DNA from: Candidatus Omnitrophota bacterium
GTDB lineage: Bacteria; Omnitrophota; Gorgyraeia; 2-01-FULL-45-10
Assembly (NCBI GenBank): GCA_041648975.1
Contig: JBAZNZ010000010.1
Span: 10-64,009 of the forward strand
Direction: 5' to 3'
DNA length: 64,000 nucleotides
Positions 1-52,129 of the stretch are shown here, piece after piece. Each line of letters begins with the position of its first letter. Positions within the stretch are counted from its first letter, which is position 1. The translations under genes were made by a program, and so were the position numbers. The notes under the pieces are model-generated. The model was not told where the DNA came from and made no database searches. It saw only the letters and a program-made list of their open reading frames with translations.

Positions 1-3000
1 TTCGCCATCCCTCGACTGGCTCGGGATGGCGTCCTGAGCTCGTCGAAGGACGCCATGTCCGGAGACTGCGGGCCTTGCTGCGCGGCTGAAGATAGGGTGT
101 CCCCTTTTAGGCTGGCCCTGTTTTGAGGAACGCTCGCAATATAAGGGTCCAGATTATTGCCAATGCCAAGGTCCTCGGTCTCCATTTCAAGCTCTTCGAG
201 TTTTTCCTTCAACTCCAAATCCAGGTCGTCAAAGGCGATAATGTTTACGATGTAATCCGCGTCCAGGTCTTCAATCGCAAGACCGGCATTCCTGCGCGTC
301 TCCCCCTCCTCTACCAGCGCGTCCTCCAGGCGGTCGGTTACATCGCCGTATATGTTTTCGGTCACGATCCGCATCCTTGTTTCTTCATCAAGCTGGGGAG
401 TGACCCATGCGGTACAGGCATTGAAGTATTTTTTCAGGTCCGGCGTCAACCCGGCGCCGTCCGGGTTCGTCTTTTCGAGGGCCTTGAACGTCTGGTATTC
501 CGCCCAGAATTCGACGGCGCACGCGTATTCGAGACTGTGGTCATACGAAATAAGCAGCCTTCTGAAGTGTATGTAATTCAATATACGATGCTCGAACCAC
601 TGCGGCGTATGCGCCGCGAGGCATTTGTAGGATATATCTATCGTCTTCCCGTCAGGGGATATATCCAGCAGGTCCGGGTTCCGGGCAGGGCTGCCGAGTC
701 TTAATATCTCTATCTTAAGTCCGTTATCGATGATATATTCTATCGCCGCGTTGGGCAGCCTGCGCATAATCTCCCCGGAGGCTGTTGGGAAAAGCCCCCA
801 TTCGTTTGTAAGAAGATATTCCAGCTCTTTGCGGCATGCCGACTGATGAAGCCTCTTTCTGGCCTCAGCGGCTTTGTCCTTATTTACAAGCATGCCTTGG
901 GCGTCTCTTTTATTGGCCCATTCCATGATCCTGTCGCCGAGCACAGACTTCTCGACGATATCTTCCTCGGACGCGATACCTTCGCTTTCGGCAAAATGCA
1001 TCCACCCTTTCAGCTCCGACTTCTCATGGATGACCTTGGATCGTTTACGGGCATAAACGGTCAGCTCATTGCGGCCTGCATGGTCTACGTCGAAACCGGG
1101 GTTCAGTATTACTACGATGCCGTCTTCCAGCCATAACTTTACAGGGTGCAGCCCCGTAAAAAGGACTATCTCCTGTCCGTCTACATCGTCATCGACTTTG
1201 CCTGCGCGCAACATGCGCCTGCGCTCTTCCTCCACTATATCCTTTATCGCTTTTTCTATATCATAATGCATTATGCCGCCGCGGTGAGGACGAGAACCGA
1301 GCCGTAAACCGTATATCTTAAGCCTGGCATCCAGCGTGTCCGAGATCTTACGCATCTCCTGAGAGATGTTGCTGTGGTACAGGTCATGCGCCTGCCTGGT
1401 CGTGACCGGCGCCAGGCTCGCGGGCATAAGTATATCCCTTGGATAGCGCAAACTGTAGAGCTTCGCGAAAATATTGCCTGTCAGGTGAGCGATCATAAAA
1501 TTAGCGGCAATATCCGGGAAAGTATTTTTAATACCCGTAAAACAGGAAAGGGCCGCTACAAAAAGCGTTCCAAGCATCACCGCTACAGGTATGCCAAAAA
1601 CGCGCTGGTACATATCGGCTCCGCCGGGCGGCTCCTCGCCATTATTCATCTTCTTATACAATTCGATGTAGGCGGATTTATTGAAGTAATGGACAGCGAT
1701 CAAAGTAGCCGATATATAGAAGAAACCAACCCAACCGCCGTTTACATAAAACAAGGCGCGCAACAGCTCCTCTATCAGTGGAGACACAGCCAGGCTCGCG
1801 AACCATCCGGTTCCAAATATTGATCCGGGCATTATTGCCGGTTTATCCCACAATTCATTCATGTCGGCCGGCAGTACCGCATACCCCACGCCTATGCCTT
1901 TCTGGCGGAGCCTCGTTACTGCGAAATTGACGATAAAGTGCGAGACAGCGGTAATGCCTATGGCTATCCAGGGGCTTGATGCGAGGAAAAATACGGCGAT
2001 TGTGTCGAAGATGCTTACTATGGCTGGGGCTATCGATTGCTTGAATATCTTATCGGGAGGCGCCCTCATGCTCTTCAAGTGCAAAATTGTAAATATAAGC
2101 CCACCTATACCTATAATAGAGGTGAGTATGCCTGTACGGAATATTGATATGGCCGGGAATAAATATTCTAATACCGCAAAGAGGCCGAAAGGTGCGCCTA
2201 TCTTAAGTATCTGCTCAAACCATGGGGCTATCTCTATAGCTGTACCCCTAAGAAGCTCCTCTTCACCCAGGTTAAGCTTAAGCACTTTGTTATACCACCA
2301 CCTACCAATAGACTGGGTAAGAGGTAGAGTAGCGGGTTGCCACGGCCTGGCAAACCGAATCTTTATGCGATCCATAGCAGACCTTATCGTCTGTTCAAAC
2401 GGATACACCCATTTCCCGCTTCTTATCCGTTCGGCATGAAGATAGTCATTATATCTTATGACGATCTTCGGCGCCGCACCCACCTCTTCCGACCGCAAAG
2501 ACAATTCGTTTATTCCGTCCAAATCCATTCCAAGGGTTGCTATCGTATCGAGGAAGTCGGATCTGGAATCAATTAGATTTTTGCTCTTCTCGAAATACGG
2601 CCTTACGATCACTGTATCCTTATAAGTCGATTCAAACTGCCCGAATGAGGCGTCAATATATAAAGACGGCTCCTCGTCTCCCGTATACACGGCTATCCAT
2701 TGATGATATACAGGAAGCGCGTCTTTATACTTATAATACCCGGGGATAATTTCAATCCTCACACTATCATTGCCTCCTATCGGAATATTAAATCGCGCGG
2801 ACAATATTTCCGCCAGGATATTGGATGTTATTATACATTCTTGTCTTGCGTATTTAGGCAGAAGCAGCCCTTCCTGTTTCAGCGCGGCGAAGAAATCGCT
2901 TTGGATGCTTCCGGCAAAATCTCCCGCCATGTCCGGGCCTTCCTTCTTCATGTGTGCTTTAAAAAAGTTCATTAACCGGGGTTTTGCAGATGCGTTATTT

Positions 3001-6000
3001 GTAACGAAATAATAACCGAACAGCCCGCTGTTTCCAAACTCCTCTCTACGGGTAAAAAGTGCGCCCTTGTATCCGTTATTTCTGAATAGATAACTTACTA
3101 TAAAATAGGCCATCCTGTTATGAGCGCCTGCCGGATGAGGTAAATAAGAATTAAAGGCGTTTACCGGCCGATATTCCCTGACTGTATCAAATCCCGGCAA
3201 ACCTGGTTTTGCATGCGCCCTCCCTTCGCCTTTCTTAGCATGATCTATCAATATCTGCCGGCCGATGATATAAATATACAGATCGACTGCCGCGTCGAAT
3301 AAATCATTCTCATTGTCGAATCTGGTATTGGCTATTTTCAATATATCCGTATCAACCGGCAACCTTTCCTTTAGCGTGCGTAATCTCTCTGTCCTGATCT
3401 CATCGCTATACTCTTTATTTTTTCTGTCCCCCCTGAATAATTCGACCACATCCAAAACCTTCTCCCAGGTAAGCGGTTCCAGCGGCAGGCCCGAAGGCTT
3501 GGATGAAACCAGCACTTCAGAGTTGAAATAATGGACTGCTTCCATAAAATTGTCATCGACTATTCTATTATCCACATTTAACCGCAGAGACGGCACCACC
3601 GAAACTACTCCAACCTTAGCTGTTGCCTGCAGCGTCGCGTACCCTATTTCATGGCCTCGCATGCGCAGCCGCATGATGATGAAGTTTACGATAAAGTGCG
3701 AAATTGCGGTAACACCTATGGCTATCCAGGGGCTTGTAGGCAGGAAGAATACGGCGATTGTGTCAAATATGCTTATGATGGCTGGGGCGGCGAGTTGCTT
3801 AAATAGGGACTGTCCCCGGACTGTAGAATCCACCGAGGTGGGGACTGTCCCTATTCTTACCGGAGGCGCCCTCATGCTCTTCAAATGCAGAATTATGAAT
3901 ATAAGACCGCCTATACCTATAATAGAGGTGAGGATGCCTGTGCGGAACAGGCCTATGGCCGGGAAGAGACGTTCGAGTATAGCGAATAATCCGAAAGGTA
4001 TGCCGACTTTGATGAGTTGCTCGAACCATGGGGCTATCTCAAGAGCCGTTACCCTTAGAAGCTCTTCCTCGCCAAGGTTAAGCCTCAATACTCTGTTATA
4101 CCACCATCTGCTTATAGACTGGGTAATGGGCAGAGTTGATGGGGCAACTAATCCTTTTGCTGCCGTGGCCGCGGCAAGCGCCCTGCTCTCGCGTAAGCTA
4201 GGCAGATACATATCTCTCTCATAATCGCCGGCGAACCTTCCCATCGTAAAGTGCGCCATAGTATCGTATACGGCATTCTTTGAAAGCTCTGCCCAGCGGT
4301 TTTTATTGTTCGCGTAAACTTCCATGACTTCTGTAAGCGCCTTTAACATATTGTCGGCCGTCTCTTCATTCCTTCTATTGGCCGACTCAATATCCTTATC
4401 GTCTTTTACTTTTATTGAACTTTCATTAAACAGGAACGCCGCCCCCTTTATCTCGCTTAAAGGTTTCGGTTGATTCTTCTCCTCATCCCACGCGTTCTCG
4501 GCTTCCAGGACCCATCCGTCCGGCGTAGAGACGCTCAAGGCTCCGCATAATCCGGCCTTCATACCGCTCGTTCCACTCGCCTCAAGCGGCGGTATGGGAT
4601 TATTCAGCCATACATCGGCTATAGAAGCGAGGTGTTTCGCTACGTCGATATCGTAATTCTCAACGAAAAAGACATCACCCTTGTTACGGTCGCTCAAGAT
4701 AAACTCATTGATACTTCTTATTATATCCTTCCCTTTATCATCGGCCGGGTGCGCCTTACCGGCGAAGACTATCTGTAGCTTTAAACCGCGTTTTGTTGCT
4801 TCCGCGCGTAATGTCTCTATCCTCTTCAATACCAGGTCGAGACGCTTGTATGGAGCGGCGCGCCTCGCGACGACGATGGTAAGGGCGTTATCATCAAGGC
4901 CTTCGAGCCGGCTTGCCGGACGCTTCTGCCTCAGATCCTCAATAGCGGCCTTCTTTGCGGCTTTTCGCATCGCGAGATATTTGTCCGGATCAGCGTAGCC
5001 GATGAGCTGGCGTATCTGCTCTTCATTCAGCCTATCCATTGCCATCCTTTTCAAATAACCAAGGGATTTCGCATGCTTAAGCAGGCCCTCGAGGAAGGCC
5101 TGCATCGGTTTCATCTGCCAGAACCTGCGGTGGACAGCGTTTGTTATGGCTATTATCTTGTTGCCGTTCTTATAAAGCGTCCGCGAAACCCTCGCATGGC
5201 TCTTCGCCACTGCGTTGGCCCTGCATGACAGTTCTAATGCCGCGTCCGCCATACAGACCATATCTTGATTGTTAAATCTTCTGCTCGGATGCAGAAATAT
5301 CTTCTTTATATCCTCATAATTCAAGCCGTTCAGATTCGCGTAATGCTCAAAATAATCCCTGAATAACTCTTCGTCAAATTGTTCGTTGCCGGCTTCTATG
5401 GGCGTGTGGGTCGTAAATATCATGCGGTCATGCGCGGCGCGTTTCGCGTCTTCGAACCGGGACCCTGCCGGCGCCCCCGCCGATCGCCTTTTTTGCTCCT
5501 GACTTATCAATTCAAGACCGGCGAAAGCGCTGTGGCTCTCGTTCATATGCACAAGCGCCGGCCGCATCCCGCAGGAGGCTACCGCCCTCATGCCTCCCAC
5601 TCCAAGAAGAAGCTCCTGCATAAACCGCAGCTCATCCTTGTGGGCGGGCACAATACTTCCGGAAGCGTCTTTGCCGCGATCGTAAAGATTATTCGTAAGC
5701 TCTTTAGCCCTGGGATGCGCGTCGTCTTTAGTATGGTTCTCGGGAATGTTTGTATCCAGCAGGTACATCTCGACCCGGCCCACCCTGATCCGCCAGATCT
5801 TCGCGTAGATATATTTGTCGCAGCCCGCTTCTATCTTAAGGACGATGTCGTTCTTTTTGCCGGTCAGGGCATCCGTCTCCTGGACAATCTCCCCTAATTT
5901 TGAAAAATCTGTAGGCACGTTAATTTCGACCTGAGATCCTACCGGTACGTTTCTATGATGATCGTTAGCATGGTCTTCGGCAGTCACTATATGCTGTTCA

Positions 6001-18000: not shown

Positions 18001-21000
18001 TTCCATAAGAAAGGTCTCTGTATGCGTTCCCTCACTTTTTGGACAGAAAATTCTTCTGCGCGTTCGGATCTTTCGCCTTTATAAGATACATTGTGGATTA
18101 TCATAGACACAACCGCATACCAGATCGTAACGACTATGGTGCAGCACGTTGCCAAAATAACTTTCATAAAATACGGCGTCGGCGACGCATAAACGTAATA
18201 TAGGAATGGCCCATTAAGCACGCCCACAAGAAGGCCCATTCCGAACACCTGGTTTATGTCGACTTTCCTGTTCGCGGAATACTGCGAGGAGAAATCTATA
18301 AGCATATTTGAAACTACGGTCATTATTGTGGAAAAGACGACCTGGTAATAGGTAAACGAGGTGAAATAAAGTCCTATAAGCCCTATTACAGAGACAAATA
18401 CAATCGGAATAATGAGACGCTTATTCAGCGTCTCGCCGGGCAGTGTCACCGAATATGACCAGCTCCTGTTTGGAAGCACGAGTTTAACCAAAAATTCCGC
18501 TATTACCTTTAACGCGGACGTGCGTACTTGCGGAGAAACAGGTTGATCGGTACCTCGAAACTGCGCTATCTCGCGCACCGACCTCTGCCCCGGAATGCTG
18601 TCATCCTCCTTGGCCATGTCCGGAGATTCGCCCTTGCGGCGGGGGACAGCTTTTCCCGCGACCGGGCCGGTTTCAGCGGGTTTTTTATATACCGTGATTA
18701 TATCGACCGGTTTGTTCGGGACCATCTGATTGCTAAGGGTATAAAGCTTCTGTTCATGCCGCAGGCCTTCAAATCCCTCCGTAATCAATATCGAGTCCTC
18801 GATAAGCGCCGCTCTCTCCTTCTGGCCGGCGAGCTTCCATTCATCGACCGCTTCAAGTTCATAATAATCGTCTGTGAATGCTATGAATAGCGCTCCTCCG
18901 GACTTAAGCACCCGGGCGATCTCCTCAAATAGCATGCGGTAATTTTTGGGCTCAAGATAGGCCATTCCGCTCGTTATCATAACGACATCGAAGCGCCCGT
19001 CCTCAAAATCGAGCCTTTGGTTTTCATTAAGATCCTGAACCACAGATGCCGTGAGTCGCCTATTGCCGGCCAATTCTATCCTGTTTAAACCGATACCTAC
19101 GACCTCCTCCACCGGTATCGAGCCGGGAATATACGTATTATATCCGCTAAACAGGTCAAGCACTTTTAATGGCCGGCCGGAGCTTCCGCGCGGCAATGAC
19201 TCCCTGGCTTTCTGTAATATTATCCTTTCGGCGGGCTTGACAAGATATGATCGGGTCCTAATCTCCCGGACAAAGCTTGAGGAAGGACGTTTCCGGCCGG
19301 ACTGGCTCATATCGTCTGCCATGTCCGGCACCTTACCCTTGCGCCGCGGTTTGTTCGCCGCCGATCTGACTTGAGCAAGTAAAGCCAATACCGGCGGACC
19401 GCCGAACCACCTCGAAAGTGTTGAGCGCCATGACACCGCCTCATGCAGCTTGTCGAGCGACCACCTGGCCCATACGCCGACGTTACCATCTTCGGCAGCC
19501 GCCTCTTCCAGGGCGCTGAGCGTGTCCTTTATATCGGACTGGCTCATCCCTTCGCATACGTACGAGAGCGCTTCAGCTGCGCTCCTCCTGACAACGGCCG
19601 GCCTGTCGGACCGCAGGATATCGATGAACTTTATCTTCGCCGCCGCCCTCAACGGGTCTGCCGGGTCCACCTTGAACGTGAAGACCCTTCCGAGGACGAA
19701 TAGCGTGTTCGCGAGCTCGTCATCTTTCAAGCTATCGAGTTTCGCCAATTCTAAGGACGCGTCGATATTGCCGTAATATACCTTGTCATGCGCTATCTCC
19801 GAAGCCGCGATTATCAGAGCGTATTTTTTCGGTACCGCTCTCTTCGTATATATGGCCGCCCTCTGGGCTATGACAGGGTTTGAAGCGCCTTCCTCAAGCA
19901 GCTTCTTCTTCTCCACCCTGATCTTATTTGAAAGCTCCTGCATTATCTTATAAGGATGCGTCTTGTAGCCGCCTGCCTTATACATCGCAAGTATCGTCTT
20001 TGTGATAGAAGTAGAATAATCAGATATGGCATCCAGGACATGGCTCTTCAGTCCTGTAAATACCTTCATGTAATAATGGATCACCTCTTCGGTGGAGGTG
20101 TATATGCCGCCGCCGTTCGCGACAGGGCCCGGTATATAGAGAATTCCCATCTCGTGAAGAATGTTCTCGAGACCGCTCTCGAACGCGTTGTTCGACCCCT
20201 CGACTATGAGCTTCGCCCTTATCCTTGATATATTGTTCTTCTGTTTTGTAAATATATTAGACCCCGCCGCGAGCACAAGCGCCGTGCAATCCTTATACAG
20301 GATCTCGTCCGGGTCACCGTCATATCTTTCGACGCCCTCGCCTTGATAAGCCTTGGCCAATTCAAACTTCTCGCCGTTCTCGAACATCTGACGCAGCCTC
20401 ATCAACTCATCGATATCGAGGCCCTTTGCGGAATAGACGGCTCCGAACTTGTCCGAGACACCTGTTATCTTGAAGCCGAGCCTCTTATATTCGGTAAGAA
20501 GGAGTTTTACAACCCCGCTTCCTACATCGCCGAAGCCCTGGATTATTACCGTCTTATTATTTTCATCTATCTTTACCCCGTGATGCGCAAGCGCTTCAGT
20601 ATCTGAAATTGCTACGGCAAGCGAGTCAACGACTCCACGGCTTGTAACCATCCATGGCATATGCGGAAGGCTTCCCATAGCCTCGGGCCTGCTTGTGGTG
20701 GCAAGTATAGAGCGCTTACCGAGGGGCTTCAGGATCTTATTACGGATTACTCTTTCCCGGAATCGCTTATCGGCCTCATCCTGCAGCCACGTCATCTCTG
20801 TTTCGCCCATATCCATGTCCGGGCCGGCTATGTAAAGGCCGCACAACATGCCTGACGCTATGGATGAAGCCACCCAATTCCGTATCACGCTCTCTTTGTG
20901 CGCGCCCGGAACGGCCAGGAAGACTGTTTTGCCGCCGTCAAAGAAGACGTCCCACAAGGGATTTTTGTCTCCCATCGCTTCCGCAAGCCGCGCGGATTCG

Positions 21001-24000
21001 GCGAGGACCTGGCCTGATTTATTCGCAAATTCGGCTTCACTTGTGAACTGATACCACCGGCACCCGCCCTTCGCCAGCGTAGTGCCTGCGTCGCCCGAAC
21101 AGCTGTTCACTGAAGTAACGACAAGAGAGCCGTCTTCCATCACGGTAATAGCGACCCTAAAGGGCTTCTTATCCTTATACCAGCTGAACATCTCTGAATT
21201 AGCGGAGTCGAACATAAGAGTAAGCGGCAGTTTTCTTTTAACACAATACCTGTAAGCGTCGGCGTCTTCTATGAGGGCTTTTCTTAATATATCTTTTGCG
21301 TTGGGAAGATCGGCGGGAAGAAGGCGAGTCGCACAGGCTGTCAACGCCTCATCCAATTTTTGTTCCACTGTAAGCGCTAACTCTTTCTGCGCGAATAAAA
21401 CCCGGTTCACCGCCCGGAACGCCGCAAACGCCGCTGCTGCTCCGGCGGCCGCGCCGAAGAACCAGAATAACGGCCCGAATATTACAGCGATATAGATATC
21501 ATCCAGAAGCCCCGGCCCACGGCACAATCCGATCACCGCGAGGGACGACATAAGCGCCGCGCCTATCGCGGCAGATACGCCTATGAACTTCAGTCCGATG
21601 CGCTCCCTTAGCAGGATCAGCTTATCCAGCGGCGATTCGGTAACCGGCGAATCTTTGCGCTGCGCCTGTCCGTCCTCATCCTCCGCCGCCATGTTCGGGC
21701 TCTCGGTCTTTGCCCTGACAAACATCCCGGCAGCATGCCTTCTCTTCGCGACCGTTACGACAACCGTCTGATCGGCGTCGGACTCTTCCATTTGGGTGGC
21801 TATCTCAAGACGGCCGTTATCGTCTATCTCCCGCCTAACTACATCGGCGGTCAGATCGCTCTGTCTGCTGTCTAATATTTCAATAAATATCGCCATGCCC
21901 GGCGGCGACAAAAGTTGAGCAATGTTGCTGAATAGCATGCTTCTTGCGTTTACCGGCTGCGGATCAAGCGCGCCTATCCTCTTCTCCTGGTTCATTGAAA
22001 ATTCGTCATAACCGCTCGCGATCCTTCCTGCCTCATGCAGCGTCCTATTTACGGATATGACATCGAAGCCGCCGTTCATCCGTTTCGGAAATGCCCGGTC
22101 CGTTATGTCGTCCTCGACTATCTCCACATCGAGCGGACCGATAGCGCCTGATGACCTATAGTCATTTACGAGCCTGAGATACTCGGCCAATATTGTCGCG
22201 ATGAATGAGTTATTATCGACAAGCGCGATCCTCTTCCCCGGCTGCGCGACGCTTATCCAATATAATCCTTCGAGTCCCGCTCCGAACAGCGCAGCCCGGC
22301 CTGATTCTATCATCTCTTTTCCCAGTGGTTCGGAATCGGGTATCAATATTTCCGGATTGCCGCCCGTCATCATCGGAATGTAATAATTCCGGTAAACATA
22401 CCGCGCATAGGCGCACGCGAAAGATATGCGGTATCGTTCCAGCATATCAGGCTTTCTATATAGAACATTAGCCAACGTGGTCAATAGACGAGATAAGGCT
22501 TTCGAGCCGTCATCGTTTTGCATCTCTTCCGACAGAAGATTGAGCGTAGAAAACCTGGGCTTAAACTGGTGCGGAAGGTATAAAGGCGCTGTCAGGATAT
22601 AACTTATGGCATCCGGGTCGATCCTGCGAAGGGTATCCTTCTCCCCTTCGGATAATTCGGCAATCTCTTTTATGACATCCGCGAAATCTTCGCCTCCGGC
22701 GGCGTGGCTCACGTAGATGTGCGCGCCGTTTAAAGTACCGGATGATATATGAAGTTCTGAGTTGCTCCCCACGGCGTTGCTTACAAGCGATAAAATTATC
22801 GAGGATATGCCTCTGTCCTGGTAATTCACTCCGCCGACATCTGCGCGAATGTCCACAACTCCCAAATCGAGGGTCAGATTGCCGTTTCCGTAGTTGGTCT
22901 TGAAACCGAATTCCATAGTCCCAACTACCGCGCCGTTCGATCGGCGTAATATCTCGATAGTTATCGGCCCCGGAGCCTCGACACCCCTTAAATTGAGCCT
23001 GAACCGTTCGCCTGTATTATCGGCGAATTCATCGTCCTGCAGTTCCAGCACCTTTGCGATGCTCAGCAGGCGGCTTATTAAACGGCCGTCGTGCTCTATC
23101 GCATCTTCGGGATGCTCTGCCCCGGCTATAACGCCGTGGTCGTTTATAATCCTGCCACCCGGTAGTTCATATCCGGGTTTTACTATATGCTGGCACTCTT
23201 CCAGGAGCAGTTGCGCAAGGTCTTCCGCCGATAACTTATTCAGCAAGATCTCCCCTAACCACATTGTCGGCTTAAGGCCGTGTATCTCTTCGCTAAAACC
23301 TGTTCTCGTACTGCATAATATATTCCTGCCTTTATCATTGCCTATAATCACGCAACCTGCAATAACGCTTATAGAGATATTGCGCGCCGTTTCGATGATA
23401 TCGACCCGCTGTTTAGCCGTAAGGTTTCGGAAATTCGGCCTCTCCGACAGTATCATTGCCAGCCGCCCGGGCTCTTTAGCCTCCCGCATCTTTTTGAAGA
23501 GGCCGTTTGCGGCGTATTTTTCCTGCAACGCCTGCGATTTCTTGTCGGCGGTCGGCTTATAAGGCAGCCTCCTGATTCGTTTTGCCGTATCGGTATTGTG
23601 GTCCAGCTCAAAGGCATGTTCCGCACTTATATGATAGCGTAAGAATGGATTAGTATGATCTACATCGTCTCCGGGTTCATCCTCGATATCGGGTAATTCA
23701 TGCCGCCGTAGGGGCGAATACGGCCCGCGGCCTTTTGCGCGATACCCTGCGCCGGGAATAGCCATGTTAGGAGCGACGCGTTTCCTGCGGCGCTCTTCGT
23801 TCTGTAAAGAAATTAGGCCGATGACACGCGACCTGTCCAGCTGCGTGGCTATAGCAAGCGGCATGATACAGGCCGCAACACAAACCGTCCGCCTTATTCC
23901 GGGATAGGACTCTGCCATGCGCTTTGCGACGCCGGCAAGGTTCAGGATGCTCTCAGGCGAGCCGAGGCCTCCGTATGCGAGATGGAGGAGCAAAGCTGCG

Positions 24001-24713
24001 ATCGTAATAGATACGGCTGCGCTGACAGCAGGGACAATAGCGCGCCGCAGGTTGAAGAAGGGCCATGAAAAGCGCCTCCCGGGCTCGGCGCGGCTTGCGG
24101 GAATTGCTTTAGTCTCGATGGCGGGCAATTTCTCTTCAGGTTCTTTTGCCGCTACTTGTTTTTCCGCAGGCAGAGATTTAGCCGGCGCAACCTGCTCCTG
24201 GGGCTCGACCTTGCCGGCTTCCGGAGACTCGAAGAGCTGCTCATATAGCAGCTCTCTCCGGTTAACCGGTATCGATACCATTACCTTCTTATTACGATAT
24301 TTGTTTATATTAGATTCTAAAGGATCAAACTTAAAATACCGGAGGGTATAACCTGAAAAATTTATGAGGACTTCGTCATAAAATATATTGCAGACCATTC
24401 CATTGTCCTGAAGCCACTCGTGGTCCTGTTCTGCCATCGTCCTGACAGCCTTCTTGACATCGTCCAGGGTTAGGTCAGCCTTTTCCTTTCCAGAAAGCCT
24501 CTGGATAAGCACGTCAATGAACCTGACGCTTGCCTTAGGACCGGAATCTTTGAGCTTCAGGAAAGATTCAACCGCTACTTTGTTATTCCGGGGCTTTCTT
24601 TCGCTGAAAAAGTCGGGGTTCGCCCAGGTGATATCCTGGGCAATAAAAGTGATGACAAGGATGGCTGCGATTATCCTTATGGGCCGGTTGAATCTTCTGG
24701 ATGGTGTTTGCAT
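1..24713 (-). CDS. Giant multidomain membrane-associated protein, N-terminal >8,237 codons inside the window; stop codon lies beyond the window start. Mosaic of alpha-glucan enzyme modules (GT35, GH77, GDE, 2x GH13-like) plus ELFV-dehydrogenase-like and SAM-MTase-like modules and several TM clusters.
   Basis: ATG at 24713-24711 with an in-frame TAA 5 codons upstream. The frame (codon top coordinate = 2 mod 3) was hand-translated at 24713-24580, 20759-20520, 14219-14100, 12050-11970, 4379-4140 and 140-1 and is open everywhere. The track lists no minus-strand ORF in this frame, as expected if the frame never closes inside the window. The + strand ORFs here are short, mutually overlapping and R/V/F/S-rich, typical of antisense. 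N-terminus MQTPSRRFNRPIRIIAAILVITFIAQDITWA looks like a signal anchor. Confidence 0.8.
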   Translation of the reverse strand, partial: MQTPSRRFNRPIRIIAAILVITFIAQDITWANPDFFSERKPRNNKVAVESFLKLKDSGPKASVRFIDVLIQRLSGKEKADLTLDDVKKAVRTMAEQDHEWLQDNGMVCNIFYDEVLINFSGYTLRYFKFDPLESNINKYRNKKVMVSIPVNRRELLYEQLFESPEAGKVEPQEQVAPAKSLPAEKQVAAKEPEEKLPAIETKAIPASRAEPGRRFSWPFFNLRRAIVPAVSAAVSITIAALLLHLAYGGLGSPESILNLAGVAKRMAESYPGIRRTVCVAACIMPLAIATQLDRSRVIGLISLQNEERRRKRVAPNMAIPGAGYRAKGRGPYSPLRRHELPDIEDEPGDDVDHTNPFLRYHISAEHAFELDHNTDTAKRIRRLPYKPTADKKSQALQEKYAANGLFKKMREAKEPGRLAMILSERPNFRNLTAKQRVDIIETARNISISVIAGCVIIGNDKGRNILCSTRTGFSEEIHGLKPTMWLGEILLNKLSAEDLAQLLLEECQHIVKPGYELPGGRIINDHGVIAGAEHPEDAIEHDGRLISRLLSIAKVLELQDDEFADNTGERFRLNLRGVEAPGPITIEILRRSNGAVVGTMEFGFKTNYGNGNLTLDLGVVDIRADVGGVNYQDRGISSIILSLVSNAVGSNSELHISSGTLNGAHIYVSHAAGGEDFADVIKEIAELSEGEKDTLRRIDPDAISYILTAPLYLPHQFKPRFSTLNLLSEEMQNDDGSKALSRLLTTLANVLYRKPDMLERYRISFACAYARYVYRNYYIPMMTGGNPEILIPDSEPLGKEMIESGRAALFGAGLEGLYWISVAQPGKRIALVDNNSFIATILAEYLRLVNDYRSSGAIGPLDVEIVEDDITDRAFPKRMNGGFDVISVNRTLHEAGRIASGYDEFSMNQEKRIGALDPQPVNARSMLFSNIAQLLSPPGMAIFIEILDSRQSDLTADVVRREIDDNGRLEIATQMEESDADQTVVVTVAKRRHAAGMFVRAKTESPNMAAEDEDGQAQRKDSPVTESPLDKLILLRERIGLKFIGVSAAIGAALMSSLAVIGLCRGPGLLDDIYIAVIFGPLFWFFGAAAGAAAAFAAFRAVNRVLFAQKELALTVEQKLDEALTACATRLLPADLPNAKDILRKALIEDADAYRYCVKRKLPLTLMFDSANSEMFSWYKDKKPFRVAITVMEDGSLVVTSVNSCSGDAGTTLAKGGCRWYQFTSEAEFANKSGQVLAESARLAEAMGDKNPLWDVFFDGGKTVFLAVPGAHKESVIRNWVASSIASGMLCGLYIAGPDMDMGETEMTWLQDEADKRFRERVIRNKILKPLGKRSILATTSRPEAMGSLPHMPWMVTSRGVVDSLAVAISDTEALAHHGVKIDENNKTVIIQGFGDVGSGVVKLLLTEYKRLGFKITGVSDKFGAVYSAKGLDIDELMRLRQMFENGEKFELAKAYQGEGVERYDGDPDEILYKDCTALVLAAGSNIFTKQKNNISRIRAKLIVEGSNNAFESGLENILHEMGILYIPGPVANGGGIYTSTEEVIHYYMKVFTGLKSHVLDAISDYSTSITKTILAMYKAGGYKTHPYKIMQELSNKIRVEKKKLLEEGASNPVIAQRAAIYTKRAVPKKYALIIAASEIAHDKVYYGNIDASLELAKLDSLKDDELANTLFVLGRVFTFKVDPADPLRAAAKIKFIDILRSDRPAVVRRSAAEALSYVCEGMSQSDIKDTLSALEEAAAEDGNVGVWARWSLDKLHEAVSWRSTLSRWFGGPPVLALLAQVRSAANKPRRKGKVPDMADDMSQSGRKRPSSSFVREIRTRSYLVKPAERIILQKARESLPRGSSGRPLKVLDLFSGYNTYIPGSIPVEEVVGIGLNRIELAGNRRLTASVVQDLNENQRLDFEDGRFDVVMITSGMAYLEPKNYRMLFEEIARVLKSGGALFIAFTDDYYELEAVDEWKLAGQKERAALIEDSILITEGFEGLRHEQKLYTLSNQMVPNKPVDIITVYKKPAETGPVAGKAVPRRKGESPDMAKEDDSIPGQRSVREIAQFRGTDQPVSPQVRTSALKVIAEFLVKLVLPNRSWSYSVTLPGETLNKRLIIPIVFVSVIGLIGLYFTSFTYYQVVFSTIMTVVSNMLIDFSSQYSANRKVDINQVFGMGLLVGVLNGPFLYYVYASPTPYFMKVILATCCTIVVTIWYAVVSMIIHNVSYKGERSERAEEFSVQKVRERIQRPFLWKVGGDFLRHVGIQLVSDVYIRVFLACLTGSTLAIFFAYFLNLRKITSGTASQPQALVSQKFVSPVKAGRRVDGNFMPLLQGRSRQDWGVLDFDTVKPLVDFNAEMGQHIIQWFPIMVSDSYSNSPYSMESSKLIDPKYLSVPAFLRDYPAQDGSDFIKDNQAEIARLNAAQRVDHYRVAQLKLDCLRRVWGNFKDDKSNPLYAEYERFLRENGSELSDHILYRQLKTEGLLNNNMRGWDWRRWNDYDKGLSDYGLTRRTGEPNPAIERARQRHAKEIEFQLFVQFAARRQLEELMGYGRRQGVEFAIDHPFAFGGADTWLHPEVFGLKKENGYRRLTVQGVPPEGAYPAGQHWQFYPFDWDNPATLEFLKANAMLYKELGFMYNRKDHGLGYYRTYHISQDIDEDMTLEKLGLFEKIEAIRQEVLAGKKSKKKACEEVMGLIKGKLLDMRQRGEHPGLPEDALQLLFDEHGNLRPDNMIKMGRMVPQAQHGEMLPPGSPRVREDIVEKKVFKGEPMWDFIRLTPSDMLKDGGFMVQYLFPEDGALPPQANDSVLVGYFKLAKGESVLSEFLKFAQEEGMVEIWETLGALPENINQSTRRLGGSILTPVIWGLDPGDMFHPSKHLPNAFVTGSVSDSCTIRTRWEEEMDGNPDLKAQKTALIKKWKTEDSRFVGPEGSYRAFTPEVHQKILEMIYASPGSMVVLNWLDILGLTDEYRLNRPGVQTAQWEMRLPGDVTVEDLLGAARNLKRVGGAEAHQTTARATEAVKLLMHLKSFRKPPEHKTGVTEILNVEPQTQQIRVVGEPFLVDAYVRGDVKSVNMVVSAGGNEVKVPMTKCVVSAGLPAGDEKWTHNDWAARVPGHYDAHIEVETTDGVIVASGKKDLFAVPPDSDLNICSPGYIGNKIKTEGRINAEKAAPVIAYLRGRGWQDKNIAFVCGLREEAIIGGMLGIAQYLIGYDHTGIFACISAATVLLFTIGHMGGVYEYDKSGKLTRAPPKLTKDFALKILTILGLGTFLRSIYIIPFLFLPHVTAISIFITISAALVTAITLGHGFYNRDIARLLKLAVGMAAGQQLVGQAADGTFTESRIISDSDGILIAARWQKDGDRVRLSVVNHSDRAKSGIAPLKLHHLGVDVSQPSRHVDLSTGSEVMFIPGENISPDGSIYYELEPGRKHEFEITINKEKALEARMMDSFIERVFIDGEGLAAIEAGVPNFPHQEWGRDSMISLLGAIETGRFDTTRAILLKWARWEKDGLIPNVHGKYESSDAALWFIEAIYRHIDKFNDIAILDMAVGENNRKVSDVLRAIMTRYSTTGDDPSSVHADAATGFIYSPARFTWMDTKNTLRQGYPVEIQALWFNALNRMRELDPENRTEYRKTAEKIRNNFDEYFWNEEEGTVFDILGTEGFQTAEQSKQENRRDPCVRPNQIFVVYFGLAAGEHAKRIVESTRDRLLIPGTGALRSLAPPVKMYVEDTRDNEEGKVIGWPKGYGEYYYRYYDKDKPQEDRDKAYHNGTGWPWLYPFYMLCAAEYGYMTKEEAKAKMVDECMELARDPYTGGDYLFNGGSPELVDAEASQIPGGEGKKNYPKGCWRQAWSNASVLWGLGRLESDTPLAGAGNVRAKSAVIGYCRFKPDNIGAAMADIRSGMGKEIELNQEAQSDFAAVLAEAKSRIGGDNGAVMLLADLYARSRIRFAKMPVEAVYADETLYIDDNFLVQDKREDLIVCLCEAVRASERSDKLIIEVDAHGLARAFGTTLDKIPDVVMDQNLGDGVPAKIIDDSSGLKRLHLNPRYLHCDPKLIKDIWDWYAYELGAGHIWFKGVWQESPLSKAMAREWHERDVASGKESPGATRESGSKYDVYDYKIDPRLIASDNTNEGFRRFVRERLKPKGLKCDLDFVTNQFASDSPLIFSEESAGLFWSWKDRDEFFGWARGNPDLKNLSDEELEARLLKGPGREFSWVAEGMFFEAEVTDGEMARWMDEGILPARYHDSMRIVRHMAPGALSLALINYSKGQNRGKIADILGSIADMTCEGGVRADLADWIYWNRYFDEKLKPWGISREAAGRMMPREIWDDLMAGLREKHPGLLILGEVYGENNRVFFREMGMRQGGCAVSYNKEFADTLSGGTAQAVRGYLFGAGGTSAQARDATMYTNHDEGVGLERLGSMEHVRAAAAICAMGGGYMLIPFIEFLPIERPPTREKTAEKNWRDSAVYIPEYPFENLDIGLAEESNSFTHRPHRGVQRRWAHAESVRKSQPDVAVALRSDGVTHTIVVPWYVDTLENSGLIPMVRHTGQEDVLEVVNDSDVPTETTICLDRIFGPGAAGDSMEGELSNVVLSTGTKVFFGPRTLVIELPKYGRCRLVFRQTEAYKNGRESADALLAEAYTRARPESEGGDGAAWASNFYSHHKDEISFAEFKAVFEDVLERLLFSNQDIIRRGTAWIISHEEFLGPVAFLSAADNQQLENLLQGSGDRSVLPLALDHKFAGLGAIIKFFELVSAAKQRWIIAQLMSAAMAVDDINLRTQIMKEVFSSMPAALPLIAEAGRLKMPAGTEEALMQRRYKQIPMMRAGKIKDMITPAVAAKVFVRKRESSDGEDIYEITEEDTGITLNDIARQNAWVEAENTCDIAGAQPLRPRLINLKVKSEESMDAFALIADGEVYLLFLGDNHTGAILPESFGFLPEAGAIEGFSGTYLLFDINTKRSERTTDKRQLTAEPLPVSIPQGGQVFHLIPAFDKERPGIMQVMVRFLGGLDRLRQNLERLLESIIIPQGNTIYLVGVHREGEIGKMLNDSKLSPPDHLYTRDIGGERVQYRVVVRDTPKARKNETASAFSVSDMADPDVIDKVKTCSQWLAGRKITTAVDITGHLTPDSPLVVKHPYWCVPHTNVPVQWRADGIPEGLSEQQILETQGVSEGPRSAAFLLYVPCNDPNDPLVVKLKERGFVSGIEKIGGKPTGRIRVLISHNRTHRAMTSTAALDLRHPKVHRYLLNTIRAWIESGVTVFRIDMADRFPIELLAEFRKEFPQARFITEHYNLFGALIDIFRKSGIDEFYDYSELWTRLRDQFSKEDSAAPVQRWLYNAQKYLTIGIFVNFVSNHDEDVALSMYEGNREKYLCDLAITAFLPGYFMFNFPDALGFMMPGYRDRHTGELRHDIRRHATYEKFRQLVKETNEGRPLDGETYEALPYDTSIAGGVANVINAKGDPIFRKGVMLNAPPQDECVYFTRSYQGRTAIVVANRSPEPRTLEITKYLNMPDVEKTVAEFLPWEVRVYFVDGTTLHERDIVNGSMLYRRARQLFGDGTNHAWALQLCDECRAWQAPLNEVRRAVRLMLRYGDENMKKGSLWILTGADGGFKQEFDYAEEGNFAIVRDSLHTGDMKAGIALGQLVADAVIVSGLRERILAKITHAFGPDLGGLSIPQITNLLHLEKALLEQEHGPEWAGKFLESRKGAFGNETFFASCYQAVAAWSRSAVQADRDAAGWMLYDPQSELSSRFRDYYLARISAVKDRLEHDDIQAIEALKGLIDEVIEIPGLARRVSSEMVNAVCSGIAHFNEHEQLRTLYSAEAMLLRQTLNIAWARAIIENHKYDMTEPGRYSAFKSLVLEWNLEKDDALHDAAQWILFDPASAFSAIFMREHTDTLAGFGERLKQGDQSALDGLREYLAAAEKMPGLNECLIDKAVGTVRMVIGHIKADSDLKALLGRLLDMEADLLRQKYQAGWAREFVSGHRNHWQEENFLEVFRAVILTYNKSDNKDTVDAAQWMLFKAESPFSEKFFDKYKRMIDDMRESVKAEDAAASGTLEVLLHDAKEIAGLNRRLTDEVISRAKTGAPGEDTIFYCQLAARLLFVAANQVVAGTITRFFARQDVQMPGAARRRLETISKDLAVVEGLVVNEEGAAVPFREELAAVLADPARLNFDNYLRLESAYRKYIEGTGIQRQASRKLGLKDDERVVYLSLEYGLSEWLRIYGGGLGILSGDTIRGLNDRYGPNTFVGVGLAYKNGYFEQHIVTAEDHANDHHRNVPVGSQVEINVPTDFSKLGEIVQETDALTGKKNDIVLKIEAGCDKYIYAKIWRIRVGRVEMYLLDTNIPENHTKDDAHPRAKELTNNLYDRGKDASGSIVPAHKDELRFMQELLLGVGGMRAVASCGMRPALVHMNESHSAFAGLELISQEQKRRSAGAPAGSRFEDAKRAAHDRMIFTTHTPIEAGNEQFDEELFRDYFEHYANLNGLNYEDIKKIFLHPSRRFNNQDMVCMADAALELSCRANAVAKSHARVSRTLYKNGNKIIAITNAVHRRFWQMKPMQAFLEGLLKHAKSLGYLKRMAMDRLNEEQIRQLIGYADPDKYLAMRKAAKKAAIEDLRQKRPASRLEGLDDNALTIVVARRAAPYKRLDLVLKRIETLRAEATKRGLKLQIVFAGKAHPADDKGKDIIRSINEFILSDRNKGDVFFVENYDIDVAKHLASIADVWLNNPIPPLEASGTSGMKAGLCGALSVSTPDGWVLEAENAWDEEKNQPKPLSEIKGAAFLFNESSIKVKDDKDIESANRRNEETADNMLKALTEVMEVYANNKNRWAELSKNAVYDTMAHFTMGRFAGDYERDMYLPSLRESRALAAATAAKGLVAPSTLPITQSISRWWYNRVLRLNLGEEELLRVTALEIAPWFEQLIKVGIPFGLFAILERLFPAIGLFRTGILTSIIGIGGLIFIILHLKSMRAPPVRIGTVPTSVDSTVRGQSLFKQLAAPAIISIFDTIAVFFLPTSPWIAIGVTAISHFIVNFIIMRLRMRGHEIGYATLQATAKVGVVSVVPSLRLNVDNRIVDDNFMEAVHYFNSEVLVSSKPSGLPLEPLTWEKVLDVVELFRGDRKNKEYSDEIRTERLRTLKERLPVDTDILKIANTRFDNENDLFDAAVDLYIYIIGRQILIDHAKKGEGRAHAKPGLPGFDTVREYRPVNAFNSYLPHPAGAHNRMAYFIVSYLFRNNGYKGALFTRREEFGNSGLFGYYFVTNNASAKPRLMNFFKAHMKKEGPDMAGDFAGSIQSDFFAALKQEGLLLPKYARQECIITSNILAEILSARFNIPIGGNDSVRIEIIPGYYKYKDALPVYHQWIAVYTGDEEPSLYIDASFGQFESTYKDTVIVRPYFEKSKNLIDSRSDFLDTIATLGMDLDGINELSLRSEEVGAAPKIVIRYNDYLHAERIRSGKWVYPFEQTIRSAMDRIKIRFARPWQPATLPLTQSIGRWWYNKVLKLNLGEEELLRGTAIEIAPWFEQILKIGAPFGLFAVLEYLFPAISIFRTGILTSIIGIGGLIFTILHLKSMRAPPDKIFKQSIAPAIVSIFDTIAVFFLASSPWIAIGITAVSHFIVNFAVTRLRQKGIGVGYAVLPADMNELWDKPAIMPGSIFGTGWFASLAVSPLIEELLRALFYVNGGWVGFFYISATLIAVHYFNKSAYIELYKKMNNGEEPPGGADMYQRVFGIPVAVMLGTLFVAALSCFTGIKNTFPDIAANFMIAHLTGNIFAKLYSLRYPRDILMPASLAPVTTRQAHDLYHSNISQEMRKISDTLDARLKIYGLRLGSRPHRGGIMHYDIEKAIKDIVEEERRRMLRAGKVDDDVDGQEIVLFTGLHPVKLWLEDGIVVILNPGFDVDHAGRNELTVYARKRSKVIHEKSELKGWMHFAESEGIASEEDIVEKSVLGDRIMEWANKRDAQGMLVNKDKAAEARKRLHQSACRKELEYLLTNEWGLFPTASGEIMRRLPNAAIEYIIDNGLKIEILRLGSPARNPDLLDISPDGKTIDISYKCLAAHTPQWFEHRILNYIHFRRLLISYDHSLEYACAVEFWAEYQTFKALEKTNPDGAGLTPDLKKYFNACTAWVTPQLDEETRMRIVTENIYGDVTDRLEDALVEEGETRRNAGLAIEDLDADYIVNIIAFDDLDLELKEKLEELEMETEDLGIGNNLDPYIASVPQNRASLKGDTLSSAAQQGPQSPDMASFDELRTPSRASRGMA
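1890..4200 (-). repeat. Duplicated ~170-aa four-helix transmembrane module inside the giant ORF (two copies about 1.8 kb apart)
   Basis: The antisense + ORFs 1861..2439 and 3550..4224 are about 75 percent identical to each other. Sense strand: TLPITQSISRWWYNRVLRLNLGEEELLRVTALEIAPWFEQLIKVGIPFGLFAILERLFPAIGLFRTGILTSIIGIGGLIF (about 4150-3900) versus TLPLTQSIGRWWYNKVLKLNLGEEELLRGTAIEIAPWFEQILKIGAPFGLFAVLEYLFPAISIFRTGILTSIIGIGGLIF (about 2350-2100). Confidence 0.6.
4215..6200 (-). other. Domain of giant ORF: GT35 alpha-glucan (glycogen/maltodextrin) phosphorylase module
   Basis: VVYLSLEYGLSEWLRIYGGGLGILSGDTIRGLNDRYGPNTFVGVGLAYKNGYFEQ (N-terminal GGLGxLAGD block), MNESHSAFAGLE, RMIFTTHTPIEAGNEQF and the PLP-lysine block EASGTSGMKAGLCGA (codon at 4557-4559). 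The C-terminus was translated codon by codon at 4379-4215. Confidence 0.7.
6650..7650 (-). repeat. Three tandem ~145-aa (about 435 nt) helical repeats inside the giant ORF
   Basis: DAAGWMLYDPQSELSSRFRDYY, DAAQWILFDPASAFSAIFMREH and DAAQWMLFKAESPFSEKFFDKY, anchored at about 7582, 7171 and 6740. Confidence 0.5.
8550..9450 (-). other. Domain of giant ORF: GH13 catalytic module 2
   Basis: GRIRVLISHNRTHRA (region I DxVxNHxS), DLRHPKVHRYLLNTIRAWIESGVTVFRIDMADRF (region II GFRxDxA), ARFITEHY (region III Glu), FVSNHDED (region IV). Confidence 0.55.
11400..12700 (-). other. Domain of giant ORF: GH13 (alpha-amylase superfamily)-like module 1
   Basis: GAGHIWFKGVWQESP, YDVYDYKIDPRL (GYDxxDYxxIDPxFG block), DLDFVTNQFASDSP (region I, His replaced by Gln), ARYHDSMRIVRHM (region II candidate), LILGEVYGEN (region III), YTNHDE (region IV). 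Confidence 0.5.
13150..14800 (-). other. Domain of giant ORF: glycogen-debranching-enzyme-like module (GDE_N plus amylo-alpha-1,6-glucosidase GDE_C)
   Basis: Translation checked codon by codon at 14219-14100 (KYESSDAALWFIEAIYRHIDKF...). Also FTWMDTKNTLRQGYPVEIQALWFNAL, AYHNGTGWPWLYPFYM and CWRQAWSNASVLWGLG, which are hallmark GDE_C blocks. Confidence 0.65.
15780..17770 (-). other. Domain of giant ORF: GH77 4-alpha-glucanotransferase (amylomaltase-like) module
   Basis: PIMVSDSYSNSPYSMESSKLIDP (matches GDSPYQSFSAFAGNPYLID), YGRRQGVEFAIDHPFAFGGADTWLHPEVF, YNRKDHGLGYYRTYHI (IDH region) and the C-terminal VVLNWLDILGLTDEYRLNRPGVQTAQWEMRLP (matches PMQDLLGLGSEARMNTPG..GNWRWRL). Confidence 0.7.
17900..18480 (-). 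other. Polytopic transmembrane cluster (about 5 helices) between the MTase and GH77 modules of the giant ORF
   Basis: RLIIPIVFVSVIGLIGLYFTSFTYYQVVFSTIMTVVSNMLIDF...LLVGVLNGPFLYYVYAS...VILATCCTIVVTIWYAVVSMIIHNV...LACLTGSTLAIFFAYFLNL. Comparable clusters occur at about 14850-15300, 21300-21760 and 23950-24160. Confidence 0.5.
18850..19230 (-). other. Domain of giant ORF: class-I SAM-dependent methyltransferase-like module (second)
   Basis: RPLKVLDLFSGYNTYIP (motif I region) ... LDFEDGRFDVVMITSGMAYLEPKNYRMLFEEIARVLKSGGALFIAF (motifs II-IV), translated from 19190-18860. Confidence 0.55.
19990..21180 (-). other. Domain of giant ORF: Glu/Leu/Phe/Val dehydrogenase-like module
   Basis: Hand-translated motifs DGGKTVFLAVPG, IAGPDMDMGETEMTWLQDE, TVIIQGFGDVGSGVVKLL and IVEGSNNAFESGLENILHEMGILYIPGPVANGGGI match the GDH-family GGGKGG / GPDxDxGxxEM / QGFGNVGS / EGANGP...NAGGV blocks. 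Confidence 0.6.
21950..22650 (-). other. Domain of giant ORF: class-I SAM-methyltransferase-like module (first of two)
   Basis: GAGLEGLY...RIALVDNNSFIAT...EDDITDRAFPKRMNGGFDVISVNRTLHEAGR...LLSPPGMAIFIEIL follows the motif I / II / III / post-III order of Rossmann MTases. Weaker than the second copy. Confidence 0.35.
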
Positions 24714-24920: not shown

Positions 24921-24948
24921 ATATTATCATATAAAAGAAATGTGTCAA
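24921..24948 (-). promoter_or_regulatory. Candidate sigma70-like promoter for the giant gene
   Basis: Minus-strand TTGACA (+ coordinates 24943-24948) followed by an AT-rich TAATAT-like -10 in an AT-rich 250-bp spacer. No Shine-Dalgarno before the ATG. Confidence 0.2.
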
Positions 24949-52102: not shown

Positions 52103-52129
52103 TCTGATTCGACTGTCAACTAATAATCT

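Follow-up and report, generated by a model that had tools for sequence, protein, structure and literature searches.

What occupies the left 24.7 kb of a 64,000-nucleotide stretch of Candidatus Omnitrophota DNA (contig JBAZNZ010000010.1 of assembly GCA_041648975.1; hereafter the window, meaning the whole stretch that was analysed), and on which side of the membrane would its product work? Over positions 1-24713 the list of open reading frames (ORFs) holds solely plus-strand ORFs of 150-278 amino acids (aa). The initial annotation had proposed that one uninterrupted minus-strand frame, from the ATG at 24713 to the window edge, escapes a track that reports only start-to-stop ORFs, and a six-frame check bore this out. 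Reverse-complement translation from this ATG to base 3 gave 8,237 codons and 0 stops, in the frame that had been named (24713 mod 3 = 2); given the base composition, the probability of such a run is about 1e-176. The remaining five frames of the 24.7 kb contain 190-470 stops, with a longest open stretch of 287 codons. Since a stop closes the frame 8 codons upstream of this ATG, the gene starts inside the window and runs off at its left edge. The pattern of GC content at the three codon positions (GC1/GC2/GC3) is even along the ORF and similar to that of neighbouring housekeeping genes, with which relative codon usage correlates at r = 0.95. It is near certain that positions 3-24713 of the minus strand hold the opening 8,237 codons of a real Omnitrophota protein-coding gene whose length is at least 11,109 codons, and mis-assembly is unlikely. 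For the product we favour, with a rough probability of 0.6, a membrane-tethered, cytoplasm-facing scaffold that would degrade alpha-glucans and expose a small N-terminal domain; this topology and function are much less certain than the gene.

The extent of the gene was taken from other assemblies. A look-up with the adjacent 151-aa PgpA protein recovered the same neighbourhood in three further assemblies, which are 99.5-99.99% identical to the window over the stretches compared. In each the giant gene runs up to the contig end: 708 aa in the NCBI metagenome-assembled genome (MAG) GCA_028715235.1, 8,208 aa in Logan SRR8542065, and 11,109 aa in ENA ERZ27247363 (contig of 60,302 bp), where the gene call ends exactly at contig base 1. 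Since the ENA call is still cut by the contig end, the gene has at least 11,109 codons (33.3 kb), which is a lower bound on its true length, with at least 2,872 residues beyond the window and the stop reached in none of the assemblies. A 500-aa C-terminal query gave no match in genome contigs or metagenome contigs, and the giant protein itself is absent from the protein database searched. The strain comparison gave just 6 synonymous and 5 non-synonymous differences, so that the ratio of non-synonymous to synonymous substitution rates has no power and is uninformative.

The enzyme modules of the predicted protein (Table 1) include a GH77, GH133-type, GH13 and GT35 set, which by established biochemistry would cover indirect debranching plus phosphorolysis and convert branched alpha-glucan, such as glycogen, starch or maltodextrin, into glucose-1-phosphate and glucose. 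The GH77 module carries a large insertion, keeps the nucleophile region 'RKDH' and is 56% identical to the GH77 part of P0067 (P-numbers denote members of the protein family described below). The debranching module matches PF06202 (E = 5.5e-55) and TIGR01561 (E = 5e-36) and shows 45% identity to residues 4097-4604 of P0052. GH13-like module 1 gave no direct Pfam or PDB match; its regions II, III and IV are kept (VRADL, LGEVY and TNHDE), and the His of region I is changed to Gln. In GH13-like module 2, the alignment with neopullulanase 4aef (E = 5e-7) shows that the catalytic D/E/D residues are kept (FRIDMA, ITEH and SNHDED). The GT35 module scored 252 and 264 bits in two overlapping pieces (NCBIfam cut-off 191.7), and its alignment with PDB entry 9l6i (E = 2e-56) shows PLEASGTSGMKA, with the pyridoxal phosphate (PLP)-lysine motif GTSGMKA kept. 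Its nearest relatives (47-48% identity) are Omnitrophota fragments that fill entire short contigs; the other relatives, at 36% identity or less, are stand-alone enzymes of 715-860 aa, a divergence that fits the strong divergence reported for domains of giant proteins. Upstream of this set, the dehydrogenase module has the dinucleotide motif GFGDVGSG at aa 1393 and matches glutamate dehydrogenases (GDHs) in the PDB at E = 3e-18.

The remainder of the chain is less legible. The only internal repeats are the helical repeat of about 140 aa (24-27% identity, E down to 5e-33, internal BLASTP) and a duplication of two transmembrane (TM) modules, F and G. Residues 28-223, 293-800, 4600-5000, 7021-7461 and 7771-8237 and the isolated TM modules had no Pfam match at E <= 5 and no NCBIfam match; residues 3990-4620, 7021-7461 and 7771-8237 had no PDB sequence match; and the roughly 470 residues after cluster H have no detectable relatives in protein, PDB or Pfam searches. 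Pfam and NCBIfam searches of aa 1-8237 also found no Ig, cadherin, RTX, KS, AT, ACP, condensation, SecA_DEAD, C39/S8, NUDIX, GT5 or dockerin domain.

Table 1. Positions in the window of the giant gene, its predicted modules and motifs, and the promoter match upstream of it
Feature	Residues	Window positions	Strand	Remarks
Giant ORF	1-8237 of at least 11,109	3..24713	minus	ATG at 24713; exits left window edge
N-terminal leader	1-165	24219..24713	minus	basic n-region, hydrophobic helix, then alpha+beta domain
Low-complexity linker	~168-222	24048..24212	minus	strain-variable
Hydrophobic segments B1 and B2	226-248 and 275-292	23838..24038	minus	Kyte-Doolittle
Junction motif 1, RKRVAPNMA	M at 317	23760..23783	minus	~30 aa upstream of module X
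Module X	345-557	23043..23681	minus	recurrent domain of giant proteins
Module Y	553-660	22734..23057	minus	recurrent domain of ~105 aa; in P0003, P0005, P0034-36, P0050, P0051, P0060
Module Z	676-986	21756..22688	minus	recurrent; in P0019, P0030, P0039, P0045
Junction motif 2, AKTESPNMA	M at 1008	21687..21710	minus	
TM hairpin C	1043-1098	21420..21587	minus	outer flanks rich in lysine/arginine (K/R), 8-aa connecting loop poor in K/R
Glu/Leu/Phe/Val dehydrogenase	~1211-1582	19968..21083	minus	PF00208 8e-29; PF02812 weak
Junction motif 3, RKGKVPDMA	M at 1798	19317..19340	minus	
Class I S-adenosylmethionine (SAM) methyltransferase	~1840-2010	18684..19196	minus	PF08241/PF13649 ~6e-7
Junction motif 4, RKGESPDMA	M at 2033	18612..18635	minus	best match to family consensus; position-specific scoring matrix (PSSM) score 16.8, no shuffle reached 12
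TM cluster D	2099-2279	17877..18419	minus	4-5 hydrophobic segments
GH77 4-alpha-glucanotransferase	~2321-2969	15807..17753	minus	PF02446 1e-42 and 6e-45
TM cluster E	3173-3288	14850..15197	minus	4 segments; homologous to modules in L006 and P0055
Archaeal-type glycogen debranching, GDE_C/GH133-like amylo-alpha-1,6-glucosidase with N-terminal beta domain	~3324-3880	13074..14744	minus	
GH13-like module 1	~4008-4450	11364..12692	minus	via homologous part of L005 (PF00128, 1.3e-25)
GH13-like module 2	~5000-5500	8214..9716	minus	weak PF00128 (below cut-off) and PF16657; C-terminal beta domain
Helical repeat region	5524-6063	6525..8144	minus	~3-4 diverged repeats of ~140 aa
GT35 alpha-glucan phosphorylase	~6186-6838	4200..6158	minus	TIGR02094 1e-74 and 3e-78
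TM module F	6858-7030	3624..4142	minus	4 segments; CPBP (Rce1-like)-type motifs
Junction motif 5, KKEGPDMA	M at 7262	2925..2948	minus	
TM module G	7460-7616	1866..2336	minus	4 segments; paralogous copy of F
Hydrophobic cluster H	7622-7753	1455..1850	minus	hydropathy
Junction motif 6, GPQSPDMA	M at 8220	51..74	minus	18 codons before window edge
Sigma-70-like promoter match, TTGACA-16-TAATAT with TG		24921..24948	minus	10/12 consensus positions; sequence match alone

How such a chain would be placed relative to the membrane can be approached from its leader and its hydrophobic segments. The leader helix ends in the near-invariant motif F-x-A-Q-D-I-A/T-W-A↓x-P-D, an AXA-type signal-peptidase-like site (I-A-Q-D-I-T-W-A↓N-P-D in the window copy), in which W30 is invariant and D27, A31 and P33 are near-invariant. 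An AlphaFold2 model of the leader reached a predicted local distance difference test (pLDDT) score of 83 and gave no convincing structural match. About 25 further hydrophobic segments fall into 8 clusters, arranged as even-numbered bundles. In bundles C (2 segments), E, F and G (4 each), the outer flanks and alternate loops hold 2-7 K/R residues and the short loops 0-1, a spread around C, E, F and G that places the large modules in the cytoplasm under the positive-inside rule. GDH, SAM methyltransferase and PLP/phosphate-dependent phosphorylase are classically cytoplasmic chemistries. In the scaffold that we favour, the leader would serve as a Sec signal peptide or signal anchor that exports only the N-terminal domain of about 190 residues and the strain-variable linker, and the helix bundles would enter the membrane as hairpins whose loops on the outer side are very short. 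The large enzyme modules would be kept on the cytoplasmic face, with nicotinamide adenine dinucleotide (phosphate) (NAD(P)), SAM and phosphate at hand, and indirect debranching and phosphorolysis would form an alpha-glucan assembly line in one polypeptide. The recurrent peptide K-P-E-x-P-D-M-A at module junctions would mark possible proteolytic processing sites, with module X or the CPBP-like modules as candidate proteases.

Several points weigh against this scaffold. The TM calls and the topology come from a Kyte-Doolittle scan and a hand count of K/R, which is a heuristic and not a trained predictor; segments B2, D2 and D5 are ambiguous, and an odd number of helices in any bundle would flip the downstream modules to the other side. 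About 40% of the residues of the giant protein have no assigned function, and at least 2,872 more lie outside the window. As to processing, modules F and G gave no direct CPBP match in Pfam, and their link to this family runs through the relative L006; the junction PSSM found no copies in the alpha-glucan block of 5,200 aa and none in the first ~2,900 aa of four syntenic orthologs. GH77, GH13 and GH133 enzymes are cofactor-free and could work outside the cell. Most domains of the Omnitrophota giants surveyed by West-Roberts (2023, bioRxiv 10.1101/2023.11.21.568195) were predicted to be extracellular, and Nielsen & Lui (2026, bioRxiv 10.64898/2026.06.07.730766) read the metabolic content of proteins with signal peptide and TM helices as periplasmic or extracellular; both favour surface or extracellular roles for giants of this build.

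These last points would suit the main rival, an extracellular or prey-directed effector as in the published reading of this protein class, in which the chain would be exported by Sec and lie mostly outside, its hydrolases would attack host, prey or environmental polysaccharide, and the TM bundles would tether it to the surface. The leader resembles a cleavable signal peptide with an AXA site conserved family-wide, and Omnitrophota have been reported to be host-dependent or predatory. However, the distribution of K/R around C, E, F and G fits large domains in the cytoplasm, the NAD(P)-dependent dehydrogenase and the SAM methyltransferase would be left without cosubstrate outside the cell, and the glucan-active modules are classical intracellular glycogen enzymes and not cell-wall hydrolases. 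Moreover, the 39 kb upstream contain housekeeping genes only, with no type II secretion system (T2SS), pilus or GH2 gene, and aa 1-8237 lack SecA_DEAD, C39, S8 and dockerin domains. We regard such an effector as unlikely; it retains some weight in view of the heuristic helix count and of hydrolases that work without cofactors.

A different possibility, compatible with either topology, starts from the junction peptide. The giant protein has 6 copies of the pattern P-[DN]-M-A where 0.09 are expected, and for P-[DN]-M-[AS] the count across the other family members is 22, with 2.4 expected. Extended, the consensus reads (G/D/E)-K-P-E-(S/A/P)-P-D-M-A; its copies typically lie at the borders between modules, in many cases 15-30 residues ahead of module X. 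With a PSSM trained on other species, the copies at M aa 2033 and M aa 8220 score far above any shuffle. The methyltransferase module is bracketed by two copies. One translation product might accordingly be cut at K-P-E-x-P-D-M-A by module X and/or the CPBP-like modules, the proposed products being the leader with TM segments, X-Y-Z, TM segments with GDH, the methyltransferase and the alpha-glucan block of about 5,200 aa. Cleavage by other peptidase domains has also been raised by West-Roberts et al. (bioRxiv 10.1101/2023.11.21.568195), and in one relative similar modules are encoded by consecutive separate genes.

The candidate proteases are of two kinds. In an alignment of 23 copies, module X has invariant N, I, A, R, G and E-E-x-x-H and near-invariant histidines. 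Its AlphaFold2 model, built on this alignment, has a pLDDT of 86.8 and a predicted template modelling score (pTM) of 0.85. Foldseek returned nothing significant; the top matches were selecase, HtpX, Ste24p, jannalysin, SPRTN and BlaR1, and the best structural matches, at a level below usual significance, are minigluzincins, M48 and aspzincins. The sequence profile of module X found nothing below E = 0.4 among PDB sequences, and a motif scan of the giant protein for Walker A, HExxH and DEAD-box found none that was relevant. Module X is possibly an atypical zincin-like peptidase with EExxH in place of HExxH, which these comparisons suggest and do not establish. Modules X, Y and Z had no Pfam match; by eye, module Z is Rossmann/methyltransferase-like, with FGAGLEG at aa 811. 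The second kind is represented by F and G, which are 73% identical in protein and 74-79% in DNA, and in which E-Q-x-x-K, F-I-I-L-H and H-F-I-V-N align with the CPBP motifs EExxxR, FxxxH and HxxxN. The homologous module of L006 matches PF02517 at E = 4.6e-5, below significance for membership. Window positions 2001-4000, which coincide with F, G and the uncharacterised region between them, form the lowest-GC stretch of the giant gene (0.46 against about 0.52; GC3 0.53) and may be a more recent insertion.

Against such cleavage stand the weakness of the module X fold match and the lack of the motif in several family members and across 5,200 aa of the giant protein; the motif might just as well serve for docking or modification, or be a linker that has been conserved and passed on with the shuffled modules. 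We therefore consider it doubtful that the protein is a cellular polyprotein cut by an EExxH zincin-like autoprotease (module X) or by the CPBP-like modules, and that Omnitrophota giants are 'stop-less operons' whose modules have been shuffled between species at the junctions.

The same motif could instead mark places where translation starts internally and in frame, or scars left by genes that were once separate, in which case the ORF would be a stop-less operon with nested products. Each window copy has an in-frame ATG-GCN with a purine-rich stretch 7-13 nt upstream, four of the six copies share the 11-mer CCGGACATGGC, all six are in frame, and similar modules also occur in split arrangements. 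However, five other family members show synonymous variation in the codons for K, P, E, P, D and A, and their upstream sequence is mostly CCN-GAA and not GGAG, unlike the true gene starts in the same loci, which have GGAGG-type sites. Since synonymous sites vary and no GGAGG-like site is kept, the motif is conserved at the peptide level; the conservation of P and D directly before M likewise indicates a peptide-level constraint, and starts without stops would yield only nested C-terminal products. Internal starts at PDMA are thus largely refuted by the freely varying synonymous sites and the lack of a conserved Shine-Dalgarno sequence in five other species, and the whole proposal is very improbable. 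Least probable is an artefact, either a chimeric assembly or a decayed, non-expressed frame, for which the internal duplication of F and G could speak. The window and three other assemblies agree, the F and G copies (merely 74-79% identical in DNA) are too diverged to cause assembly collapse, the stop-free frame contrasts with the other five and has host-like codon usage, the modules keep invariant residues across dozens of species, and a strain variant stays in frame across an in-frame replacement of the linker.

The giant protein belongs to a wider protein family. An exhaustive HMMER search with aa 1-1100 gave 71 matches among 1.84 billion representative proteins. The leader is matched by about 40 of the 71, many of them truncated by contig ends; these proteins reach 6,932 aa, and in every one the leader occupies residues ~1-200. 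Module X is found in about 30, where its internal position varies widely, and Y or Z in smaller sets. The order of modules X, Y, Z, GDE, GH77 and the CPBP-like ones differs among the proteins, of up to 6,932 aa, in which they recur. On these comparisons the family is defined by its leader and appears to be built by module shuffling. In one relative (L088; GCA_043822175.1 JBDRBZ010000108.1, 1-10845), three consecutive large genes lie in different frames: the first (at least 1,133 aa) has GDE_C, the second (1,614 aa) HAD plus module X, and the third (2,150 aa) Aminotran_5 plus HD. The arrangement resembles a 'split' version of the fused protein, or else a giant gene that frameshifts have broken up. 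Variation was also found between strains: in GCA_028715235.1 the linker, which lies just before the first TM segment (24046-24192 of the window; 6595-6828 of L003), gives way, with the frame intact, to an unrelated sequence that is longer by 29 codons, between flanks that are more than 99.5% identical to the window.

The position of the gene is also shared. It sits downstream of rodZ-miaB-pgsA-pgpA, and the promoter match in Table 1 lies between pgpA and the giant gene, which are 254 nt apart. The 39 kb upstream are housekeeping in content, with pgpA, a pgsA-like CDP-alcohol phosphatidyltransferase gene, a miaB-like radical-SAM gene, rodZ, ftsK, uppP, dut, pnp, rpsO, ribF, truB, ligA, a rib operon and smc; no T2SS, pilus, GH2 or carbohydrate-import neighbour was found in these 39 kb, and there is no sign of a mobile element around the giant gene. 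In four relatives with enough sequence, a long open frame begins about 1.2 kb after miaB and runs off the locus after at least 1,680 to at least 2,927 aa. The N-terminus encoded by this frame shares homology with that of the window gene, but the interior differs and is rearranged, which points to a conserved 'giant-gene site' with variable cargo. One of these relatives carries Alpha-amylase and GH77, one carries GNAT, HATPase_c and TPR, and in L006 the weak PF02517 match mentioned above is Rce1-like. In a fifth syntenic relative (L087; Logan SRR13007705_7826, 3001-8247), rodZ-miaB-pgsA-pgpA lie upstream of a gene of only 1,748 aa that ends in a stop and encodes the leader, modules X and Y and two junction motifs.

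Other features were observed further along the minus strand of the window. The ORF at 60243-64000 (1,251 aa) has a NUDIX domain and repeats itself internally, with aa ~320-380 similar to aa ~1-60. It is open up to the right window edge, its listed ATG being the first full codon; it has no junction motif, and the window may have cut another long gene here, of which this would be the C-terminal part. The smc gene (54212-59509, 1,765 aa) contains an intein with a LAGLIDADG homing-endonuclease domain near the N-terminal ATPase head (Pfam Intein_splicing 2e-25, LAGLIDADG_3 3e-18). A flavin mononucleotide (FMN) riboswitch at 52129-52321 (92 bits, above the gathering score) lies upstream of ribBA (50789-51985), and ribD is at 47481-48572. 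An 871-aa fusion at 37459-40074 joins a DHH/DHHA1 phosphoesterase, two CBS domains and a nucleotidyltransferase head of the poly(A) polymerase/CCA-adding type, and adjoins a separate DHH/DHHA1 protein at 36113-37150. A gene for a XerC/D-type tyrosine recombinase is at 40622-41509, and a tRNA-Pro(CGG) gene at 45916-45992.

The initial annotation had further named Omnitrophota as an example of the few lineages known for giant genes, called bacterial proteins above 8,000 aa very rare and described the content of this gene as unlike that of adhesin, RTX or polyketide synthase (PKS) giants. An Omnitrophota origin agrees with the adjacent MiaB-like protein: its top five genome matches, at 56-65% identity, come without exception from Candidatus Omnitrophota MAGs, the next being at 48% or less and from other phyla. 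The view of the content also holds: enzyme domains are present, and the protein differs from adhesin, RTX and PKS/nonribosomal peptide synthetase giants in having no tandem Ig-like, cadherin or RTX repeats and no KS/AT/ACP or C/A/T modules. As for rarity, the giant gene is real, but the implied novelty was overstated, since multi-enzyme, multi-TM giants of Omnitrophota have already been catalogued. West-Roberts described 'Archaeovorin' Omnitrophota giants, with a focus on more than 30,000 aa and a type sequence from Velamenicoccus archaeovorus. Nielsen & Lui reported 916 proteins of at least 10,000 aa, 94% of them with TM helices or a signal peptide, and one class of 'multi-enzyme metabolic clusters' with a sugar-metabolism module; as proteins of at least 10,000 aa are encoded on 24-28% of the Omnitrophota contigs from their samples, a gene of this kind is not rare within the phylum.

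It is near certain that the giant gene belongs to this already described Archaeovorin or multi-enzyme metabolic class. It shares with Archaeovorin the phylum, a very long ORF, many TM helices, a domain-less N-terminal region beside a predicted signal peptide, and modules of methyltransferase, glycosyl hydrolase and glycosyltransferase type that are highly divergent from stand-alone relatives. With the first class of Nielsen & Lui it shares distinct Pfam families that tile the chain with none dominating, sugar enzymes together with a methyltransferase, and a signal peptide plus TM helices at roughly one helix per few hundred residues; the ENA gene call exceeds their threshold of at least 10,000 aa (8,237 codons in the window). 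In contrast to Archaeovorin, it lacks SecA_DEAD, C39/S8, NUDIX, GT5 and dockerin domains in aa 1-8237 (in the giant-protein papers SecA_DEAD occurs in 'most' and an N-terminal C39/S8 peptidase in some, so that these are frequent and not universal), its upstream neighbours are housekeeping genes and not T2SS, pilus or carbohydrate import, its known length of at least 11,109 aa is below the focus of that survey, and its enzyme set is specifically alpha-glucan catabolic. The sugar module of Nielsen & Lui centres on starch synthase, GT1, phosphoglucomutase and ROK/hexokinase (synthesis and activation), whereas GH77, GH133, GH13 and GT35 are degradative. The searched text of the two papers contains no mention of a degradative alpha-glucan set, a GDH module or CPBP-like modules, nor of a leader family, a junction motif or cleavage at linkers. 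The family-wide leader and conserved locus with shuffled cargo, the KPExPDMA motif and module X may be new features.

Outside the giant proteins, the closest parallels are enzymes of glycogen breakdown and polyproteins. A glucanotransferase, a GDE_C-type glucosidase and GT35 make up the classical glycogen route (eukaryotic and archaeal glycogen debranching enzyme, GDE; GlgP/MalP; MalQ), and in GDE the transferase and the amylo-1,6-glucosidase are fused in one chain. The giant protein differs in that its transferase is of GH77 and not GH13 type, in the addition of two GH13 modules, and in that all activities are predicted in one membrane-anchored chain of more than 5,000 aa inside a larger protein. 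Viral and other polyproteins are similar in that a short conserved peptide recurs at module junctions, with a candidate protease-like module adjacent; unlike them, this is a cellular protein, most of its junctions lack the motif, the protease assignment is weak, and cleavage is hypothetical.

The mere sighting of another giant gene adds little. However, existing surveys of Omnitrophota giants differ on whether the enzyme content faces inward or outward and give no processing mechanism, and this gene is a compact and legible example, with a clear biochemical prediction (complete alpha-glucan breakdown) and a simple prediction of topology. Its sub-family offers three handles, namely the conserved leader, the junction peptide and the recurrent protease-like module. 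If the protein is a cytoplasmic scaffold or a polyprotein, this would shift the view of 'prey cell-wall degradation' for part of the class.

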